Origin: a virus | Direction: 5' to 3' (one strand) | IMG/VR virus record: IMGVR_UViG_3300032238_000977 | Coordinates: 14,410-78,409 of that record | DNA length: 64,000 nucleotides | Part shown: piece by piece, positions 9,217 through 28,583 of the stretch | How the letters are laid out: every line of letters begins with the position of its first letter | Position numbering within the stretch: position 1 is the stretch's first letter | Notes under the pieces: generated by a model | The model's database searches: none | Told to the model about the DNA's origin: nothing | The model's input: only the letters and a program-made list of their open reading frames with translations | Position numbers and translations under genes: made by a program

Positions 9217-10266
9217 TTATTTTGAATTTTTAATTTGATCAGAAATCCAAGTATAAGTCTTGCGAATTCCTTCTTCTAATGTTTGTTGATAATCCCAACC
9301 CAGTTTTTCTCGGATGAGATCATTATTGGAGTTACGTCCACGAACACCAAGAGGTCCATCAATATGATTTTTCTCTACAGTCTTTGCAGATACTTTAGCA
9401 GCAGTATCAACCAATTGATTGATAGTAACCATTTCCTCAGATCCAATATTCACTGGTCCAATGAAGTCGGAATCCATCATTCTGCGTGTTGCTTCGATGC
9501 ATTCATCAATATACAGGAAGGAACGAGTTTGTAGGCCATCTCCCCACACTTCTATGGTTCCACCTTCCTCTGGAAGGTAGGCAACTTTACGACAGATTGC
9601 TGCTGGTGCCTTCTCTCTTCCACCTTCCCACGTCCCTTCAGGACCGAAGATATTGTGGTAACGAGCAACACGCACGGGAATATTGTAGTTACGGTTATAA
9701 GCGAAATAAAGACGCTCACTAAAAAGTTTCTCCCAACCATATTCGGAATCTGGGTTTGCTGGATATGCGGATTCTTCACGACAGTCGGGATTATCGGGAT
9801 CAAGTTGATTATGTTCTGGATACATACACGCAGATCCAGAATAGAAAATCTTAGTCTTATTAATTCCAGTCCTCTCATTCATTTTATGTTGCTCTTCAAG
9901 AACATTCAGATTGATAGAAACTGAATTATGCATGATGTCTGCATCGTTCTCACCAGTGAAAACAAATCCAGCACCGCCCATATCAGCAGCAAACTGATAG
10001 ATCTCATCAAATGTTTGAATATAACGATAAGGAACTGAATTATAGAAGTTTCCTTGGTCGCCTTTAAATTCAAGAACACGACGAACAAAATCTACGTCTC
10101 TAAGATCTCCCTGAATAAATTCATGCGCTTCAGTGGGAGAATACTCAGGTCTCTTAAGGTCTACACCACGTACCCAATATCCTTCGGAACGTAGTCTTTT
10201 AACCATATGACTTCCGATAAAGCCACCCGCACCAAGAACAAGTGCAGTCTTAGTATATTGACTCAT
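9217..10266 (-). CDS. GDP-mannose 3,5-epimerase-like SDR
   Basis: GAGGFIGSH, FAADMGGAGF, SACMYP, YGWEKL, RYHNIFGP, GGREKAPAAICRK, WGDGLQTRSF, GVRGRNS. Confidence 0.85.
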   Translation of the reverse strand: MSQYTKTALVLGAGGFIGSHMVKRLRSEGYWVRGVDLKRPEYSPTEAHEFIQGDLRDVDFVRRVLEFKGDQGNFYNSVPYRYIQTFDEIYQFAADMGGAGFVFTGENDADIMHNSVSINLNVLEEQHKMNERTGINKTKIFYSGSACMYPEHNQLDPDNPDCREESAYPANPDSEYGWEKLFSERLYFAYNRNYNIPVRVARYHNIFGPEGTWEGGREKAPAAICRKVAYLPEEGGTIEVWGDGLQTRSFLYIDECIEATRRMMDSDFIGPVNIGSEEMVTINQLVDTAAKVSAKTVEKNHIDGPLGVRGRNSNNDLIREKLGWDYQQTLEEGIRKTYTWISDQIKNSK

Positions 10267-10299
10267 TTTTTGATCAAAAATAATAATCTCATATTATAT

Positions 10300-10328
10300 A
10301 TTATACTAAAAAAGGAGAGTTTATGCAA
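10300..10328 (-). promoter_or_regulatory. Sigma70-type promoter for the glycan operon, overlapping a terminator
   Basis: TTGCAT-N17-TATAAT on minus strand. Confidence 0.7.
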
Positions 10329-10335
10329 CTCTCCT
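10308..10335 (-). terminator. Intrinsic terminator
   Basis: AGGAGAGTT-GCAT-AAACTCTCC followed by T6 on minus strand. Confidence 0.75.
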
Positions 10336-10344
10336 CTAGGTCTT

Positions 10345-10415
10345 TCAGGCTCGCCACCAATTCTTTAACTGGAAATTGGAAACCAGGCGGGGAGAGTATC
10401 CCATCCGCACCACCA
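10345..10415 (-). ncRNA. wcaG RNA motif-like structured RNA
   Basis: TGGTGCGGATGGG...CCCGCCTGGTTTC-CAATTTCCAGTTAAAGAATTG-GTGGCGAGCC: two UGGYG motifs and a CUGG/CCAG pseudoknot, upstream of an epimerase as known for cyanophage wcaG RNAs. Confidence 0.7.
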
Positions 10416-10460
10416 GTTTTTTAAAGAAACTGGAAACTTTTAAGAGGGTCATATGACTCC

Positions 10461-10532
10461 ACCAGTACTTTTAAAGTCTCTCCGTGACTTCGAGGGGGTC
10501 CCGACCAGTACTTTTTAAGTCTCTCCGTGACT
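10461..10532. repeat. 29-bp direct repeat, 2 copies (10461-10489, 10504-10532), 1 mismatch
   Basis: accagtacttttaaagtctctccgtgact vs accagtactttttaagtctctccgtgact, 14-nt spacer. Confidence 0.95.
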
Positions 10533-10779
10533 ATTGATCCCAAAATTCTTCACTGTCTTTTACATAACAAGGAACCCTATCTGGATCTAACCATTTTGCA
10601 TACTCAATATCTTCCATTGCGGTAGAACATTGCATAGCATTGTCAAATAGATAGATATCATTCCATCGTTTAGTGTATTCGTTTTGTTTTTGCATACGGT
10701 AATCAAGTTTACCGTTGATTTCAAGAATACCTGCTTCAATAAAACGATATCCTTCACGTTCCAAGATAACCTTGGTCAT
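10531..10779 (-). CDS. Hypothetical phage protein
   Basis: 82-aa ORF, ATGA overlap with upstream gene. Confidence 0.75.
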   Translation of the reverse strand: MTKVILEREGYRFIEAGILEINGKLDYRMQKQNEYTKRWNDIYLFDNAMQCSTAMEDIEYAKWLDPDRVPCYVKDSEEFWDQ

Positions 10780-10991
10780 ACAACCTCACTAGTTTCAAGA
10801 TCACTATAAACATATTCCATGAGCATTTCATAATCATCCAGAGGATCACCAGAGAATACTACACCCTCATTTGCATAATAACGACGAACCTTTTTGTAGA
10901 GTTTCGGATTCTTTACATCAAGGTAGAATTCTCCATTTGCTGCACCACGAAGAGTGGGAATATCTTTCTTGAATTTTACTGCGAGAGTCAT
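10776..10991 (-). CDS. Hypothetical cyanophage protein
   Basis: Start at MTLAVKFKKDI, just downstream of the promoter at 11014-11042. Confidence 0.75.
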   Translation of the reverse strand: MTLAVKFKKDIPTLRGAANGEFYLDVKNPKLYKKVRRYYANEGVVFSGDPLDDYEMLMEYVYSDLETSEVV

Positions 10992-11013: not shown

Positions 11014-11065
11014 ATTATAGGAAAATAATGTTTGTGCGTCAAGTAGGACAATTTTAAAACTGTCC
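11014..11065 (-). promoter_or_regulatory. Sigma70 promoter with upstream GGACA-N10-TGTCC inverted repeat
   Basis: TTGACG-N17-TATAAT (11042-11014); palindrome at 11046-11065. Confidence 0.75.
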
Positions 11066-12104: not shown

Positions 12105-12176
12105 TCGGGGCGACAGGGATCGAACCTGTGACCTCTGGTTCCCAAAACCAGCATTCTACCGCTGAACTACGCCCCG
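12105..12176 (-). tRNA. tRNA-Pro (TGG)
   Basis: CGGGGCG acceptor; CTGGT-TTTGGGA-ACCAG. Confidence 0.95.
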
Positions 12177-12181
12177 TAAAT

Positions 12182-12442
12182 TCACTCTACAAATTCTACC
12201 ACAGGACCATTACCTTTGGCAACTACATCTTCTAAAAGATATTTTTGAACTTCGTCAAATGTTTCAAAAATTTTTTTATCATTTTCAAATTCTACCCACC
12301 AACATACATCATTTTCTGTAGGTGAATTAAGTTCTTCATCATTTTTAGGAATGGCTTCAATTATCATATGAGTATTTACACCATGCTTTTTTTCAGCCTG
12401 CATAATGGTATACATTAGAGGCAAATCAGAAATATATCTCAT
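12182..12442 (-). CDS. Hypothetical protein
   Basis: 86-aa ORF. Confidence 0.65.
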   Translation of the reverse strand: MRYISDLPLMYTIMQAEKKHGVNTHMIIEAIPKNDEELNSPTENDVCWWVEFENDKKIFETFDEVQKYLLEDVVAKGNGPVVEFVE

Positions 12443-12550
12443 TTCAATAATTTAAATTTTTTACTTATTTCTATGTATAAGAATTATACCTATAATTTCT
12501 GGAATAATCAATACCAAACCAGATCGGGATTGCTGCTAAAACTTCTAACA

Positions 12551-12745
12551 TCAAACTCCTCTCCAGTTCTTATATTCATAATGAAAGTATTGATCTATAG
12601 TATTATCCAGAGGGGCATCAACTTCCCATTGTGCCCATTCTTTACAAAACTGTTTAATGTATCCGTCGTTTAAGACACTTCTACCATATGATCTCACAAA
12701 ACAAGTCATCGCAAAATGATATCTTTGTTTAGTTTGCGTAAGCAT
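12551..12745 (-). CDS. Hypothetical phage protein
   Basis: 64-aa ORF in a run of overlapping small genes. Confidence 0.65.
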   Translation of the reverse strand: MLTQTKQRYHFAMTCFVRSYGRSVLNDGYIKQFCKEWAQWEVDAPLDNTIDQYFHYEYKNWRGV

Positions 12746-12818
12746 GGGTCAACCCCCAATATACAAAAATTCCAACAAAACTAAAAATAGACACTGCGGC
12801 AAAAATAGTGTTAGTCAT
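12729..12818 (-). CDS. 29-aa single-TM microprotein (not in ORF track)
   Basis: MTNTIFAAVSIFSFVGIFVYWGLTHAYAN fills the gap between neighbours. Confidence 0.55.
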   Translation of the reverse strand: MTNTIFAAVSIFSFVGIFVYWGLTHAYAN

Positions 12819-12821
12819 CTT

Positions 12822-13028
12822 CTAGTTCAAAGTAATTTTAAGAAATGGAAGTAGAGGTGGAATAACTCCAACTAACCTTAAAAGTCCTTCAGCAAATAAA
12901 GAAAGAACCACCCAACCGACGCACATACTAATGATAGAAGCATTGCGGTTATGTCTTCTGATAGCAGCATCAATCATCTCCTGCACTTCTGTGCGAGTTA
13001 CATAATCATCATCAAACGGTTCCATCAT
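12822..13028 (-). CDS. Small membrane protein
   Basis: Hydrophobic C-terminal half. Confidence 0.7.
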   Translation of the reverse strand: MMEPFDDDYVTRTEVQEMIDAAIRRHNRNASIISMCVGWVVLSLFAEGLLRLVGVIPPLLPFLKITLN

Positions 13029-13174
13029 TTCCCACCTCCAAGAAATTTTTCCAAAGGATCTTTTCTTGTTTTAACTATTTCACATGCTCTCATGTAAAAC
13101 ATATTTTCCATATTTCCAGACTTTTCAAATGTTTTTTTTATCTTCACCCAATTGTCGTAGGTGTGCTGATCCAT
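13025..13174 (-). CDS. Hypothetical phage protein
   Basis: Likely start MDQHTYDNW. Confidence 0.65.
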   Translation of the reverse strand: MDQHTYDNWVKIKKTFEKSGNMENMFYMRACEIVKTRKDPLEKFLGGGK

Positions 13175-13287
13175 TTGATTTTTAGATTGGATACTATTAT
13201 ATAATAGTCTCCAATACCAAGAAGTCAACATATGTGTTCATACCATAACACTGATAAAGAAATTGTTAAATTCGTAACTAATTTAAA

Positions 13288-13373
13288 AGGAAGATCAGGG
13301 ATTCGAACCCTGGAACGCTACTAACGTTAATAGTTTTCAAGACTATCGCCATCAACCACTCGGCCAATCTTCC
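13288..13373 (-). tRNA. tRNA-Ser (TGA)
   Basis: ATAGT-CTTGAAA-ACTAT, long V arm. Confidence 0.95.
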
Positions 13374-13384
13374 AATAAAAATCC

Positions 13385-13636
13385 TTAACGGACTTCAAAA
13401 TCTAAACGTCTTACTTTACGTTGACGCCTTGCTTCTTGATAAGCAAGATCTTCATTTGTAAGAACTCCAGATTTTGTTTTGGTATCTATTGAGTTTAACA
13501 TAACAACCCGAGATAAGTCAACTGCAGAGATTTTGTCTCCTCTTATCATAGTCATATTAGGACACCCACAAGTAATACTTTTTGATGGATGTCCAATCAT
13601 TTCTTTATTGCAATCTTTACATCTTATTGAAATCAT
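13385..13636 (-). CDS. Zinc-ribbon protein
   Basis: CKDC...CGC motif. Confidence 0.7.
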   Translation of the reverse strand: MISIRCKDCNKEMIGHPSKSITCGCPNMTMIRGDKISAVDLSRVVMLNSIDTKTKSGVLTNEDLAYQEARRQRKVRRLDFEVR

Positions 13637-13651
13637 TGTCCTTTACCCTAA

Positions 13652-14086
13652 TCACTGTAAATGAGATCTTAACATCCAAACAAACTTACCATGGGATTCC
13701 ATTAAATCCTGAACCAGATTAGCAGTTGCATATTGCTTTTGATCTTCCGATTCTTCCGAAATCTCTTTCATTAATTCACAAAACTTTTCGTTATTCTCAA
13801 GAAGTTCTTGAAGAATTTCTTTTGCTCCTGTTGAACTAGCCGCTTCTTTAATTTGCGTCACTTCAAGCATTCTTGAAAGAGAACTCAATGGTTTTACGTT
13901 TAAGTATCTCATATGCTCAGAAAGACGATCAATCTCTTCAAACATAGTTTCATACTGTCCACCAAAAAGTTGATGTAGTTGAGTGAAATCTGATCCAACT
14001 ACATTCCAGTGAAATGCCCAAGTTTTATGAAATAAGACAAAAAGTGATGACTGAGCATCACTCAAGAGTTTATAAAGTTTTTCCAT
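13652..14086 (-). CDS. dps: Dps/ferritin-like DNA protection protein
   Basis: HKTWAFHWNVVGSDFTQLHQLF, IDRLSEH, HGKFVWML; late promoter ATAAATA at 14103-14109. Confidence 0.9.
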   Translation of the reverse strand: MEKLYKLLSDAQSSLFVLFHKTWAFHWNVVGSDFTQLHQLFGGQYETMFEEIDRLSEHMRYLNVKPLSSLSRMLEVTQIKEAASSTGAKEILQELLENNEKFCELMKEISEESEDQKQYATANLVQDLMESHGKFVWMLRSHLQ

Positions 14087-14114
14087 TATACTCTTTTTTG
14101 AGTATTTATGCAAG

Positions 14115-14186
14115 TGGGCGATACTGGATTCGAACCAGTGACCATCTCCGTGTAAAGGAGGTGCGCTACCGCTGCGCTAATCGCCC
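14115..14186 (-). tRNA. tRNA-Val (TAC)
   Basis: CTCC-TTTACAC-GGAG; TTCGAAT T-loop. Confidence 0.95.
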
Positions 14187-14191
14187 TTAAA

Positions 14192-14254
14192 TGGATGGTA
14201 GGTATTCCCACTCGGATGTTAAGAAGGTGATTAACCGTTAACCCCGACCATCCA
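14192..14254 (-). ncRNA. Candidate structured RNA (three-way junction, tRNA-like)
   Basis: Closing stem TGGATGGT/ACCATCCA; internal stem CGGGGTTAA/TTAAC-A-TCCG. Confidence 0.5.
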
Positions 14255-14255
14255 A

Positions 14256-14327
14256 CTCCCCCGGCAAGATTCGAACTTGCGACCTGGAAATTAACAGTTT
14301 CTCGCGCTACCGCTGCGCCACAGGGGA
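14256..14327 (-). tRNA. tRNA-Asn (GTT)
   Basis: GAAA-CTGTTAA-TTTC anticodon arm. Confidence 0.95.
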
Positions 14328-14331
14328 ATAA

Positions 14332-14401
14332 AGGAAGTTACTGGACTTACACCAGTTACGAGGGCATTGTCTGCTTGTCTTGATTCTTTGACTTAACTTC
14401 C
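14332..14401 (-). ncRNA. tRNA-like RNA with non-canonical loops
   Basis: GGAAGTT/AACTTCC acceptor-like stem stacked on ACTGG-TGTAAGT-CCAGT; GTC/GAC D-like arm; only GCA-GACAA-TGC as anticodon-like arm. Confidence 0.6.
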
Positions 14402-14403
14402 GC

Positions 14404-14458
14404 GATGGGGCAAGTGTGATATACCTCATAAGGATATAACAGGGACTTACCCTCTATC
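14404..14458 (-). ncRNA. Candidate long imperfect hairpin RNA
   Basis: GATAGAGGGTAAGT...GTTATATC/GGTATATCAC...ACTTGCCCCATC. Confidence 0.45.
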
Positions 14459-14485
14459 ATTTTATATATGGAGATAAACTCCAAG

Positions 14486-14559
14486 CGTCTTGGGAGGGAC
14501 TCGAACCCCCGACCAACTCATTAGAAGTGAGATGCTCTATCCAACTGAGCTACCAAGAC
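14486..14559 (-). tRNA. tRNA-Arg (TCT)
   Basis: CTCA-CTTCTAA-TGAG. Confidence 0.95.
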
Positions 14560-14563
14560 ATAA

Positions 14564-14628
14564 GTAGGTTCCTATCGCCGCCACTCCTGAACCTACCGAA
14601 GGAGAGTGTCGCAGTTGATTTCTCAACT
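14564..14628 (-). ncRNA. Candidate H-type pseudoknot RNA at transcript 5' end
   Basis: AGTTGA-GAAA-TCAACT hairpin; CACTC(T)CC/GGAGTG stem whose loop GTAGGTTC pairs with 3' GAACCTAC (8 bp). Confidence 0.55.
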
Positions 14629-14633
14629 CTGAT

Positions 14634-14662
14634 ATTATACCAGTCCTTATGAAACTGGTCAA
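14634..14662 (-). promoter_or_regulatory. Sigma70 promoter
   Basis: TTGACC-N17-TATAAT. Confidence 0.8.
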
Positions 14663-14665
14663 GTG

Positions 14666-14745
14666 TGCCGTGTGGTTGTGAATCTAAATCAAACCTTTTT
14701 GATAAGTGCCCCACTGGATCTTATCTAAAGTTTTGAACCACGGCA
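14666..14745 (-). ncRNA. Candidate rod-like structured RNA
   Basis: TGCCGTG/CACGGCA closing stem, TCAAAACTTT/AAAGGTTTGA, GATAAG/CTTATC. Confidence 0.5.
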
Positions 14746-14747
14746 AG

Positions 14748-14821
14748 TGGGAAATCCTGGACTCGAACCAGGCACCTCACGATTATCAGTCGTGCGCTCT
14801 AACCAACTGAGCTAATCTCCC
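14748..14821 (-). tRNA. tRNA-Ile (GAT)
   Basis: CACGA-CTGATAA-TCGTG. Confidence 0.95.
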
Positions 14822-14824
14822 ACA

Positions 14825-14913
14825 CGGAGGATGTTGGATTTGAACCAACGGAGACCCGTAAAGATCTCAAGAACTTAGCAGGTTCCCGCTTTAAGCCACT
14901 CAGCCAATCCTCC
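14825..14913 (-). tRNA. tRNA-Ser (GCT)
   Basis: GGAAC-CTGCTAA-GTTCT, long V arm. Confidence 0.95.
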
Positions 14914-14915
14914 AA

Positions 14916-14988
14916 TGGGTCAAGTGAGACTCGAACTCACGACTTACAGGTTAAAAGCCCGCTACTCTACCAACTGAGTTATTGACCC
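14916..14988 (-). tRNA. tRNA-Lys (TTT)
   Basis: GCGGG-CTTTTAA-CCTGT. Confidence 0.95.
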
Positions 14989-14992
14989 AAAG

Positions 14993-15074
14993 TGGGCAGG
15001 GAGGGATTTGAACCCCCGTAGGCAGAGCCAGCGGATTTACAGTCCGCCTCCATTAACCACTCGGACACCTACCC
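14993..15074 (-). tRNA. tRNA-Tyr (GTA)
   Basis: GCGGA-CTGTAAA-TCCGC, long V arm. Confidence 0.95.
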
Positions 15075-18347: not shown

Positions 18348-20628
18348 ACTCCCCCTCCTCTACTGAACTTAACTCATCAATTAAACTTTCCAATTCGGAT
18401 TTTTTATCTTCAATTACCTCATCAGTTTTGATATCATAAGTATTTTGGTAATAAGATGTTTTCCATCCGTACTTGTATGTAGTCAAGAAGTCATTAGCCA
18501 TTACACTAATAGGAATTTCATTATCCGTGTAATGTTCCGGATTATAGGACCAGTTTCCAGAAATCGCTTGATCGAAGAACTTTTGCATAACTGCAACAAT
18601 ATTAATGTACCCATTATTGCTAGGCATATCCCACAGCAACGTATAATTGTTCTTAAGTGTTTGGTACTGGGGAACAATTTGCTTAAGTGGACCCTTCTTC
18701 GACTTCTTAATGGACAAGTATCCGCGAGGTGGTTCGATACCGTTGGTTGCATTTGACACAACGGAACTGCTCTCTGAAGGCATTTGTGCGGACAATGTGC
18801 TGTGTCGCAAACCATGTGCCTGAATTTCGGCACGTAAAGTCTCCCAATCATGTTGATATGAAATAGAGGAAATTTCGTCTACATCTTTTTTATAAGTATC
18901 GATAGGAAGTATTCCATCTGCATATTTTGTACGTCCAAAATTAATACAATGTCCCTTTTCCTTAGCTAACTGATTAGATGCTTTGAGAAGATAATATTGA
19001 AAAGACTCAGATAGACCGTGAACGGCGTCCCACGCCACCTGAGAGTCGTATTTGCACCCCAGTTTCGCCAAATAGTGAGCAAGACCGATAAACCCTACTC
19101 CAAGCGAACGACGCGCCTTGGTGGCGATTTCTGCCGCTACTACGGGGTATTTCTGATAGTCGATCAACTCTTCAAGTCCACGAACCGTAAGATCACAAAG
19201 TTCCTCAAGTTCATCATCAGATTTTACTTTACCAACATTGATTGCAGAAAGAATGCAAAGAGCAATTTCTCCACTAGTATCATCGATGTGCTGAATAGGA
19301 TGAGTAGGAAGAGTAATTTCCTGACATAAATTACTCATCTCAATTTTATCTTTAAATGATGAATGAGAATTGCAATGGTCAATATTCATGATATAGATAC
19401 GACCCGTCTCAGCACGTTCTTTGAGGAGGTTAAAAATGAGTTCTTGCGCCTTAACACTTTTCGACGGAATGGACGAATTGTTCTCATATTCAACGTATAA
19501 ATCGTCAAACTTGTCTGTTCCAAAAGAATCGTAAAGTCCAGGGACATCATGTGGGGAGAAAAGAGTGATTTCACCGTCTTGAATAAACCTTTCATAGAAC
19601 AACTTGCTAATTTGAATAGAGTAATCCAGTTTACGGACACGATTATCTTCAGTTCCCTTGTTGTTCTTGAGAACTAGAATGTCTTGGATTTCTTGGTGCC
19701 AGATTGGGAAGTGTACTGTTGCGCTTCCACCTCTGATGCCATTCTGTGTACAGCATCGGACAGTTGCCTCAAACTTCTTGAGGAATGGGACAACCCCAGT
19801 ATGAGCAACTTCTCCGCCTCTGATCTTGCTGTTGATACCACGGATTCTGCCTGCGTTGATACCGATTCCCGCCCTTTGAGCAACATAGCGCATAATAGCC
19901 AGGTCGCTACTACCGATACTATCGAGGGTGTCATCAACATCAACAAGAACACAACTAGCAAATTGTCTAAGTGGCGTCCGTACTCCCGCCATGATGGGCG
20001 TTGGAATGTTGATTTTGTGTTTTGAGATTGCGTCATAGTACCTCCTGACGTATGACATTCTTGTTTCTTTAGAATAATCCGCAAAAATAGTCAAAGCAAT
20101 CATCATGTACATAAATTGTGGAGTCTCATACACCCCACCAGTGCTTCTATCCTGCACAAGGTATTTGTCAACAACTTGACGTAGACCTGCATAAGTGAAC
20201 AGATAGTCACGATCATGATCAATATATGAATCTGCTTTATCAATTTCTTCCTTCGAATACTTATTATAAATTTCAACATCATACACTTCCTCACCAACAC
20301 ATTTGTAAATGTGCTGCTCAAGGGCAGGCAATTCCTTCATCTTACCATACAACTGCTTTCTTACGGCAAAAAGAAGCAAACGAGCAGCCACAAATTGATA
20401 ATTAGGATGATCAAGATCGATCAAATCAGAAGCAGAACGAATCAAAATCTCCTGAATTTCTGCAGTTGTAATTCCATCATAAAACTGAATACCAGAAGTC
20501 ATCTCAACTTGACTTGCAGAAACTCCAGCAAGACCTTTACAAGCCTCATCAACCATTAGATGCATTTTATCAAGGTCAAGGGATTCAATTCTCCCGTCTC
20601 TCTTTTTTACTTTTGTACCGTTGCTCAT
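18328..20628 (-). CDS. nrdA: Ribonucleotide reductase class Ia alpha subunit
   Basis: ATP cone, PTPIMAG, QFASC, SNLCQEI, C-terminal CESC. Confidence 0.97.
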   Translation of the reverse strand: MSNGTKVKKRDGRIESLDLDKMHLMVDEACKGLAGVSASQVEMTSGIQFYDGITTAEIQEILIRSASDLIDLDHPNYQFVAARLLLFAVRKQLYGKMKELPALEQHIYKCVGEEVYDVEIYNKYSKEEIDKADSYIDHDRDYLFTYAGLRQVVDKYLVQDRSTGGVYETPQFMYMMIALTIFADYSKETRMSYVRRYYDAISKHKINIPTPIMAGVRTPLRQFASCVLVDVDDTLDSIGSSDLAIMRYVAQRAGIGINAGRIRGINSKIRGGEVAHTGVVPFLKKFEATVRCCTQNGIRGGSATVHFPIWHQEIQDILVLKNNKGTEDNRVRKLDYSIQISKLFYERFIQDGEITLFSPHDVPGLYDSFGTDKFDDLYVEYENNSSIPSKSVKAQELIFNLLKERAETGRIYIMNIDHCNSHSSFKDKIEMSNLCQEITLPTHPIQHIDDTSGEIALCILSAINVGKVKSDDELEELCDLTVRGLEELIDYQKYPVVAAEIATKARRSLGVGFIGLAHYLAKLGCKYDSQVAWDAVHGLSESFQYYLLKASNQLAKEKGHCINFGRTKYADGILPIDTYKKDVDEISSISYQHDWETLRAEIQAHGLRHSTLSAQMPSESSSVVSNATNGIEPPRGYLSIKKSKKGPLKQIVPQYQTLKNNYTLLWDMPSNNGYINIVAVMQKFFDQAISGNWSYNPEHYTDNEIPISVMANDFLTTYKYGWKTSYYQNTYDIKTDEVIEDKKSELESLIDELSSVEEGECESCAV

Positions 20629-28510: not shown

Positions 28511-28583
28511 TGGAGAATAGGGGACTCGAACCCCTCACCCCCGCCGTGCAAAGGCGGTGCTCTACCAAATGAGCTAATTCCCC
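28511..28583 (-). tRNA. tRNA-Ala (TGC)
   Basis: CCGCC-TTTGCAC-GGCGG; G3:U70. Confidence 0.95.

Follow-up and report, generated by a model that had tools for sequence, protein, structure and literature searches.

The wcaG RNA of ocean cyanophages has stood as an orphan riboswitch candidate since 2010, and in papers on phage genomes it is routinely labeled a regulator of polysaccharide genes. In the viral DNA analyzed here, a stretch of 64,000 nt (the window) from a 78-kb viral contig whose closest relatives are T4-like Synechococcus myoviruses, an RNA of this kind lies between a pair of direct repeats and a gene for a nucleotide-sugar epimerase. The locus raises the question of what the repeats are, how they relate to the wcaG RNA, and whether the whole is a switch for the gene that follows it.

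The two 29-nt direct repeats described in the initial annotation are real. They occupy positions 10461 to 10489 and 10504 to 10532, are identical at 28 of 29 positions, and have a period of 43 nt. On the minus strand, each consists of a 4-bp stem (AGUC/GACU), a 7-nt loop, and an A-rich tail, followed by CUGGU. The Rfam covariance search for wcaG that had been suggested as a check gave a match of 99.4 bits against a cut-off of 42, covering model positions 1 to 98 of 98 (RF01761; 10343 to 10441, minus strand). A wcaG-like RNA had been proposed and is present, but the "hairpin module" placed beside it is not a separate element: the single match includes both, the former being hairpins 2 and 3 of wcaG and the latter hairpin 1. 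Because both belong to wcaG, the two repeats are the only uncatalogued parts. An Rfam scan of positions 10250 to 10600 (E ≤ 10) returned nothing credible except wcaG and no ToxI, T-box, preQ1, glutamine, or mini-ykkC RNA. A covariance model of the 29-mer, also suggested and built from relatives, scored the repeats at 48.5 and 48.4 bits (E ~1e-13) and found no further copies of the repeat module in the 64-kb window. A weak partial match to the module model at 20132 to 20149 (minus strand; 13.3 bits, E 0.018) covers the end motif only and is probably due to chance.

On the minus strand, positions 10532 to 10339 form a chain of four small modules, A, B, W1, and W2, with a terminator at its end, and the neighboring genes around 10532 to 10300 are all on the same strand (Table 1). 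The proposal that the four units are related modules of one RNA was borne out. The TAG stop codon of the phrog_481 gene shares the first two bases of module A. After its stem (P1), module A continues with a 7-nt loop, an A-rich linker, the anchor CUGGUCGG (10508 to 10501), and a short GGG/CCC hairpin (10502 to 10494); loop base 2 (C) pairs with linker base −4 (G), giving a predicted H-type pseudoknot. In module B, the 3′ part consists of the anchor CUGGUGGAGUCA (10465 to 10454) and a bulged hairpin (10460 to 10446). The 5′ flank of W1, AAAG (10440 to 10437), can pair with CUUU in the loop of its first hairpin, which is followed by the anchor UGGUGCGGAUGG (10412 to 10401) and a second hairpin (10402 to 10389). 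In W2, CUGG (10386 to 10383) pairs with CCAG in the hairpin loop, and the 3′ part is the anchor UGGCG with a conserved tail (10356 to 10339). Part of this tail (10352 to 10346; alignment columns 101 to 107) occurs in two linked forms, GAGCC and GUGCA, whose A/U and C/A positions change together; no pairing accounts for the linkage.

Table 1. Features of the putative transcription unit that carries the RNA array and of the gene downstream of it, with positions in the window
Feature	Position	Strand	Basis
Hairpin just 5′ of the unit's promoter (stem-loop of terminator/promoter-type cassette)	11046..11065	−	Read from sequence
Sigma-70-type promoter, TTGACG-17-TATAAT, 11/12 consensus matches	11014..11042	−	Consensus match
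phrog_552 small gene, in-frame ATG at 10991	10776..10991	−	Profile match
phrog_481 ("gp206-like") small gene	10531..10779	−	Profile match
Module A	10490..10532	−	P1 AGUC/GACU, 10532-10529 with 10521-10518
Module B	10444..10489	−	Pseudoknotted hairpin as in module A
Module W1, first half of Rfam wcaG	10387..10440	−	Hairpin 10433-10413
Module W2, second half of Rfam wcaG	10339..10386	−	Hairpin 10379-10357
Intrinsic terminator: 11-bp stem, 5-nt loop, T-run	10308..10337	−	Terminator prediction from sequence
Next promoter, overlapping the terminator: TTGCAT (10328-10323), 17-nt spacer, TATAAT (10305-10300)	10300..10328	−	
Nucleotide-sugar epimerase/dehydratase ("wcaG-like" gene)	9217..10266	−	PF01370, E 7.8e-37; phrog_540

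The same two units are found 5′ of wcaG in the homologous intergenic regions of S-SM2, SynMITS9220M01, S-RIM4, DSL-LC03, S-SRM01, and Bellamy. Two pattern scans of viral contigs, keyed to the tail of the B unit and to the center of wcaG, yielded about 80 more non-redundant arrays. Modules were named by their end motif, 5′ of which stands a hairpin of one of two types. The short type, to which both repeats of the window belong, has a 4-bp stem, a 7-nt loop, and an A-rich linker; the long type is the GUUUC-type hairpin of wcaG. Among 83 non-redundant A or B motifs within 700 nt 5′ of wcaG cores, 61 were preceded by the short type, 20 by the long type, and 2 by neither, and a short-type hairpin was present at 2.5% of random positions. 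Our literature searches found no description of the extra modules A and B.

Across relatives, A ends in UGGUCGG with a GGG/CCC hairpin, B in UGGUGGAGUCA with a bulged hairpin, W1 in UGGUGCGGAUGG with a hairpin, and W2 in UGGCG(A/U)GC. A common ending UGGU(C/G)G had been proposed for all modules; the four in the window do contain it, and the forms listed here are those conserved across relatives. Every module has a single-stranded UGG(U/C)(G/C), abbreviated UGGYS, followed by a short G/C hairpin. The invariance of UGG in A and B is partly built in, because the searches used the UGG motif, and the independent Rfam consensus covers W1 and W2 only. The hairpins 3′ of the A and B motifs take covarying inserts (among them GGUC/GACC, GAUCC/GGAUU, AGUCC/GGACU, and UGAAGG/CCUUCA). 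A variant first module, with a 5-bp stem (AGUCU/AGACU), an 8-nt loop, and the motif AUGGUGU, replaces A about 20 nt past the upstream open reading frame (ORF) in S-RS29, S-IOM18, S-BM1, S-RIM2, and Syn9 (loci L332, L333, L342, L343, and L351, the last being Syn9) and scores about 8 bits with the module model.

The repeats are conserved with covariation in related phages, and the suggestion that they form pseudoknots was right: a loop-linker pair covaries in A and B, as does a helix in W2. For A and B, the structure was derived from an alignment of 104 distinct short-type units from related phages. The stem takes at least 10 complementary forms among these units; its 98% pairing is not independent evidence, because stem pairing was a selection criterion. 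The pair between loop base 2 and linker base −4 (four before UGG) played no part in selecting the copies. It was C-G in 77 units and U-A in 27 and was unpaired in none of the 104, and the U-A form was seen with several different loops and stems. Loop base 5 and linker base −5 formed A-U, G-C, or U-A in 47 of 47 units with a 12-nt linker and were A/A in the 10-nt linker class, which includes this window. When the partner was moved by 1 to 3 columns as a control, only 22 to 31% paired. A regular loop-linker helix of more than 1 to 4 bp was rejected as a general feature, since it holds in the long-linker class only; the short-linker class, that of the window, has a single covarying pair. Because a pair that was not selected for covaries and is never unpaired, the short-type units are H-type pseudoknots, in which two Gs are bulged and the third loop is rich in A.

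A helix within wcaG joins the loop of hairpin 3 to the four bases that precede the second GUUUC. This W2 helix occurs as CUGG/CCAG, CCUG/CAGG, CAGG/CCUG, CCAG/CUGG, and CUAG/CUAG; it is 99.5% paired in 51 sequences, with compensatory changes at two positions (UA/CG/AU and GC/UA/AU). The flank-loop pairing of W1 is weaker, with 65% paired in a MAFFT alignment, which gives it partial support. The W2 pseudoknot is a previously unannotated part of wcaG; no pseudoknot is drawn in the Rfam consensus line, and the legend of the riboswitch-candidate figure that includes wcaG names pseudoknots for manA and epsC only (PMC2864571). G-U pairs are frequent in the modules, which fixes the transcribed strand. 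A reading at the DNA level, as repeats for recombination or protein binding, was rejected, as the strand-specific G-U pairs and compensatory changes point to RNA. The minimum free energy fold of the whole region was not unusually stable (z = −1.0). At the level of sequence, the locus is demonstrably a conserved, strand-specific, multi-pseudoknot RNA, and Rfam wcaG represents two of its modules.

The order of the modules varies among phages. A-B-W1-W2 was counted 15 times, and 13 times more in a version with a long hairpin preceding B; B-A-W1-W2 was counted 7 times, and W1-A-B-W2 and W2-B-A-W1 were seen as well. W1 and W2 can be separated by other modules (locus L022), a short hairpin precedes W1 in S-SCSM2R and S-PM2, and in Syn9 a pseudoknotted long hairpin stands before a B motif. 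S-SCSM1 has B and W2 only, and the arrays of S-BM1 and S-RIM2 are without W1. Modules are spaced about 50 nt apart, or 210 to 330 nt where a small ORF lies between A and B or between B and W1. As judged from these arrangements, the modules are autonomous, and hairpin types and end motifs recombine freely.

A single wcaG locus was found in each of five complete genomes, with short-type modules only beside wcaG, and all 13 further isolates with wcaG carry extra modules. The wcaG RNA is present in Syn9, with the array near 163,080-163,300 of DQ149023, and in S-PM2, near 122,750-122,990 of AJ630128; wcaG and the modules are both absent from the Prochlorococcus phages P-SSM2, P-SSM4, and P-HM2. When the wcaG-center pattern was searched against bacterial genomes, the matches listed included chance matches in GC-rich genomes and were uninformative on cyanobacterial hosts.

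Several ORFs are nested in the arrays or overlap them. In S-SM2, SynMITS9220M01, and Bellamy, an Ala/Lys/Glu-rich ORF of 60 to 70 aa lies between B and W1 (L001:1613-1805, L002:1644-1850, and L006:1603-1803, respectively) and looks like an unrelated insert in this gap. Many arrays have a small hydrophobic, membrane-type ORF between A and B (L005:1289-1500, L014, L031, L113, and others), which starts about 10 nt past the GGGAG-containing hairpin of module A and stops in the hairpin loop of the next module. Annotated coding sequences overlap the wcaG RNA in Syn9 (gp208, L351:829-987) and S-SRM01 (L005:1514-1720), and the start of gmd in DSL-LC03 is drawn inside it (L004:1543 onward). These overlapping annotations are probably over-calls.

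The RNA had been held to be something other than a 5′ untranslated region of the epimerase gene, and the context of the array agrees: as read from the sequence, it is a 3′-terminal element of the upstream transcript, because a terminator and a fresh promoter come after it. Transcription of the unit with the array at its end probably begins at the sigma-70-type promoter 5′ of the two small genes. The profile match of phrog_552 begins at residue 21 of a longer ORF, which is the position of the in-frame ATG. At the other end, the −35-like TTGCAT sits in the terminator loop and a perfect TATAAT −10 box lies just past the T-run. By sequence-based calls of promoters and terminators, a stable hairpin with a T-run follows W2 in 45 of 56 non-redundant relatives, at a fixed distance of 40 to 55 nt, and the terminator arms covary; about one-fifth of the arrays are without a T-run terminator. 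A TATAAT-like box is found 4 to 6 nt past the T-run in 37 of the 56, and TTGACA or TTGCAT occurs in the terminator loop 17 nt 5′ of this box. The downstream epimerase of the window is of the SDR type. The genes 3′ of the array vary by phage and include those for sugar-nucleotide enzymes, glycosyltransferases, 2OG oxygenases, hli, denV, and tRNAs.

Upstream, the array follows directly on the stop codon of an ORF, often overlapping it, and a member of the phrog_481 family lies within 400 nt 5′ in 42 of 75 arrays. The phrog_481 protein was considered as a partner of the RNA and rejected; it has no sequence match in Pfam or PDB, and its AlphaFold model was too poor to search (pLDDT 57). Like most of its counterparts in relatives, the array lies at the margin of the tRNA region. 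Within 1 kb of 50 of 64 arrays there is a tRNA gene on the same strand, and some tRNA genes begin 18 to 45 nt past the array end (taken as 20 nt past the start of the last anchor). The window has ten tRNA genes above the Rfam threshold, all on the minus strand, nine of them in 12105 to 15074 and one at 28511 to 28583. In the L007 copy of the locus, ARAGORN placed tRNA-Ile and tRNA-Met 625 and 523 nt 5′ of the array. In S-CREM1, the tRNA genes a few hundred bases past the wcaG array are interspersed with a manA RNA and an abiF-type sRNA (L336:1467-1819), so several structured RNAs are clustered there.

The occurrence of one array per genome, the autonomy and shuffling of its modules, and its placement after the genes of a short operon and ahead of a terminator-promoter cassette are established by these comparisons. 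The reading preferred here, held with about even confidence, is that the full-form wcaG RNA of cyanomyoviruses is a four-module chain that serves as a multi-site docking platform for a trans-acting factor. The chain would form the 3′ tail in the transcript of a short early operon, which runs from the promoter through the two small genes to the array, and this transcript would end at the intrinsic terminator, with which the promoter of the glycan genes overlaps. Each module would contain a small H-type pseudoknot, the invariant single-stranded UGG(U/C)(G/C), and the short G/C-rich hairpin. The pseudoknots would be scaffolds that display several copies of UGGYS, because the two designs are interchangeable, while UGGYS and the hairpin after it are common to all modules; such a scaffold role points to a docking RNA with several sites for a factor in trans. 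The factor may be an oligomeric protein or another RNA, and the chain could act while attached to the upstream mRNA or as a released 3′-terminal RNA. A protein sponge, as proposed at the outset, would fit the modular anatomy. A single integrated aptamer that switches the downstream gene is probably not how the array works, because W1 and W2 are separable, a promoter follows the RNA, and no co-evolving antiterminator was found.

The array could also be a tandem riboswitch, in which a small ligand is bound by each pseudoknot, or by W1 and W2 jointly, and the array thereby adjusts how far transcription runs past the terminator into the downstream genes. The structures are as compatible with one small-molecule ligand per pseudoknot as with docking, and the modules match small ligand-binding pseudoknots in size and topology, including the A-rich third loop. 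By the rating of Weinberg et al., wcaG is probably a cis-regulator and a switch (PMC2864571). The fixed distance from W2 to the terminator agrees with this, and in some relatives an inserted ORF has its start codon 10 nt past a GGAG-like element in the G/C hairpin of A. However, the conserved promoter comes after the RNA and not before it, so the downstream gene is independent of read-through, and the downstream genes are functionally unrelated among phages. Two ORFs appear to precede the RNA, whereas a generic riboswitch has its aptamer between promoter and gene. The duplex energy of the terminator arms was −8.2 kcal/mol with the native array and −8.0 kcal/mol with non-native arrays (P = 0.23), giving no sign of a co-evolving antiterminator in a test that is blind to short or non-canonical links. 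In this window the W1 hairpin seemed to match the terminator, which was dismissed as lineage-specific. Other modules can also split W1 from W2, and no known riboswitch family matches A or B (Rfam, E ≤ 10). Such a switch is considered rather unlikely.

If the array were instead a passive 3′-end element, its pseudoknots and terminator would stabilize the upstream early mRNA or mark processing sites, for example by blocking an exonuclease or by guiding RNase cleavage next to the tRNA cluster. Its position directly after the upstream stop codon, at the 3′ end of the transcript, and the tRNA genes close by agree with such a role. Simple protection requires, however, neither an invariant single-stranded UGGYS nor the conservation across genera of four distinct anchor types, and each genome has a single array despite many early transcripts. 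This explanation is regarded as quite improbable.

The tRNA genes also suggest a third reading, in which UGGU and UGGC pair with the ACCA and GCCA ends of tRNAs, as the UGGN bulge of the T-box antiterminator does, and the RNA is a sensor or decoy of tRNA 3′ ends. The motif is complementary to NCCA by base-pairing rules, and the arrays are embedded in the tRNA gene regions of the phages. However, the array shows nothing like Stem I or a specifier and matched no T-box in Rfam, the fourth base does not vary as in T-boxes, and the synteny may reflect only a shared hyperplastic region. Complementarity and synteny are a lead only, and sensing of this kind is very unlikely. It would likewise be surprising if the array were a multivalent phage RNA that captures or senses free tRNA 3′ CCA ends through three to five UGGU/UGGC sites displayed by pseudoknots; if true, a virus would be reusing a T-box-like principle in trans, from an array inside its own tRNA gene cluster. 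A type III antitoxin of the ToxI kind, or a phage mimic of one, had been suggested in the initial annotation and has in its favor the tandem pseudoknotted units with A-rich tracts before a terminator, but it is hardly credible, given that the modules are heterogeneous, diverged paralogues (those of the window share the 29-nt core only, and A and B of relatives differ in stems and tails), that no ToxI-type Rfam match was obtained at E ≤ 10, and that the flanking genes are a PF01370 epimerase downstream and phrog_481 and phrog_552 upstream, with no adjacent ToxN/AbiQ-type nuclease gene.

The catalogued motif is half of a chain of shuffled pseudoknot modules, the chain precedes the promoter of the sugar genes, and one displayed motif is common to the modules. 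What is worth seeking is therefore a trans partner and a discrete 3′-terminal RNA rather than a sugar-nucleotide ligand. The modules are a better search model than the 98-nt unit, and the loop-linker pair of A and B and the 4-bp flank-loop helix of W2 are supplied as targets for compensatory mutation.

Among known systems, the closest is the wcaG RNA itself, of which the window has a full-length, high-scoring member. It is known from T4-like cyanophages and marine DNA, near exopolysaccharide-type or high-light genes (PMC2864571). The array shares its host range and the kind of gene downstream (sugar-nucleotide enzymes, hli), here an epimerase. The wcaG model covers two modules only; it does not represent A or B, the pseudoknots, the free ordering of modules, the genes nested among them, or the location before a terminator-promoter cassette. 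That cassette resembles the composite terminator/promoter cassettes (PeSLs) of T4-type phages, described in coliphages and vibriophages (PMC2839356, PMC4122927). Like a PeSL, it has a −35 box in the terminator loop and a −10 box right after the T-run, lies in a variable region of a T4-like genome, and recurs in relatives, so that terminator and promoter together are predicted to be a PeSL-type cassette; it differs in following a structured RNA.

The preQ1-I and SAM-II riboswitches resemble the modules in size and topology: the stem is short, its loop pairs with the 3′ tail, and the third loop is rich in A. No match to them was obtained by sequence or by covariance model, and the array chains four or more copies. 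ToxI RNAs are likewise tandem small pseudoknots before a terminator, but the array is without an adjacent toxin gene, identical repeats, or a match to the family. T-boxes have a Stem I with a specifier loop and an antiterminator with a UGGN bulge; in Rfam scans, the array had only the UGGN-like motif in common with them. In sponges of the CsrB/RsmZ type, repeated GGA motifs in hairpin loops bind the CsrA dimer. The short-type loops of the array read YGG(A/G/U), where the base 3′ of GG takes part in the pseudoknot and covaries accordingly, and the long-type hairpins have no GGA loop; its motif is UGGYS after a pseudoknot instead of GGA in a hairpin loop. Like these sponges, however, the array consists of several similar structured units that display one short single-stranded motif in an RNA ended by a terminator.
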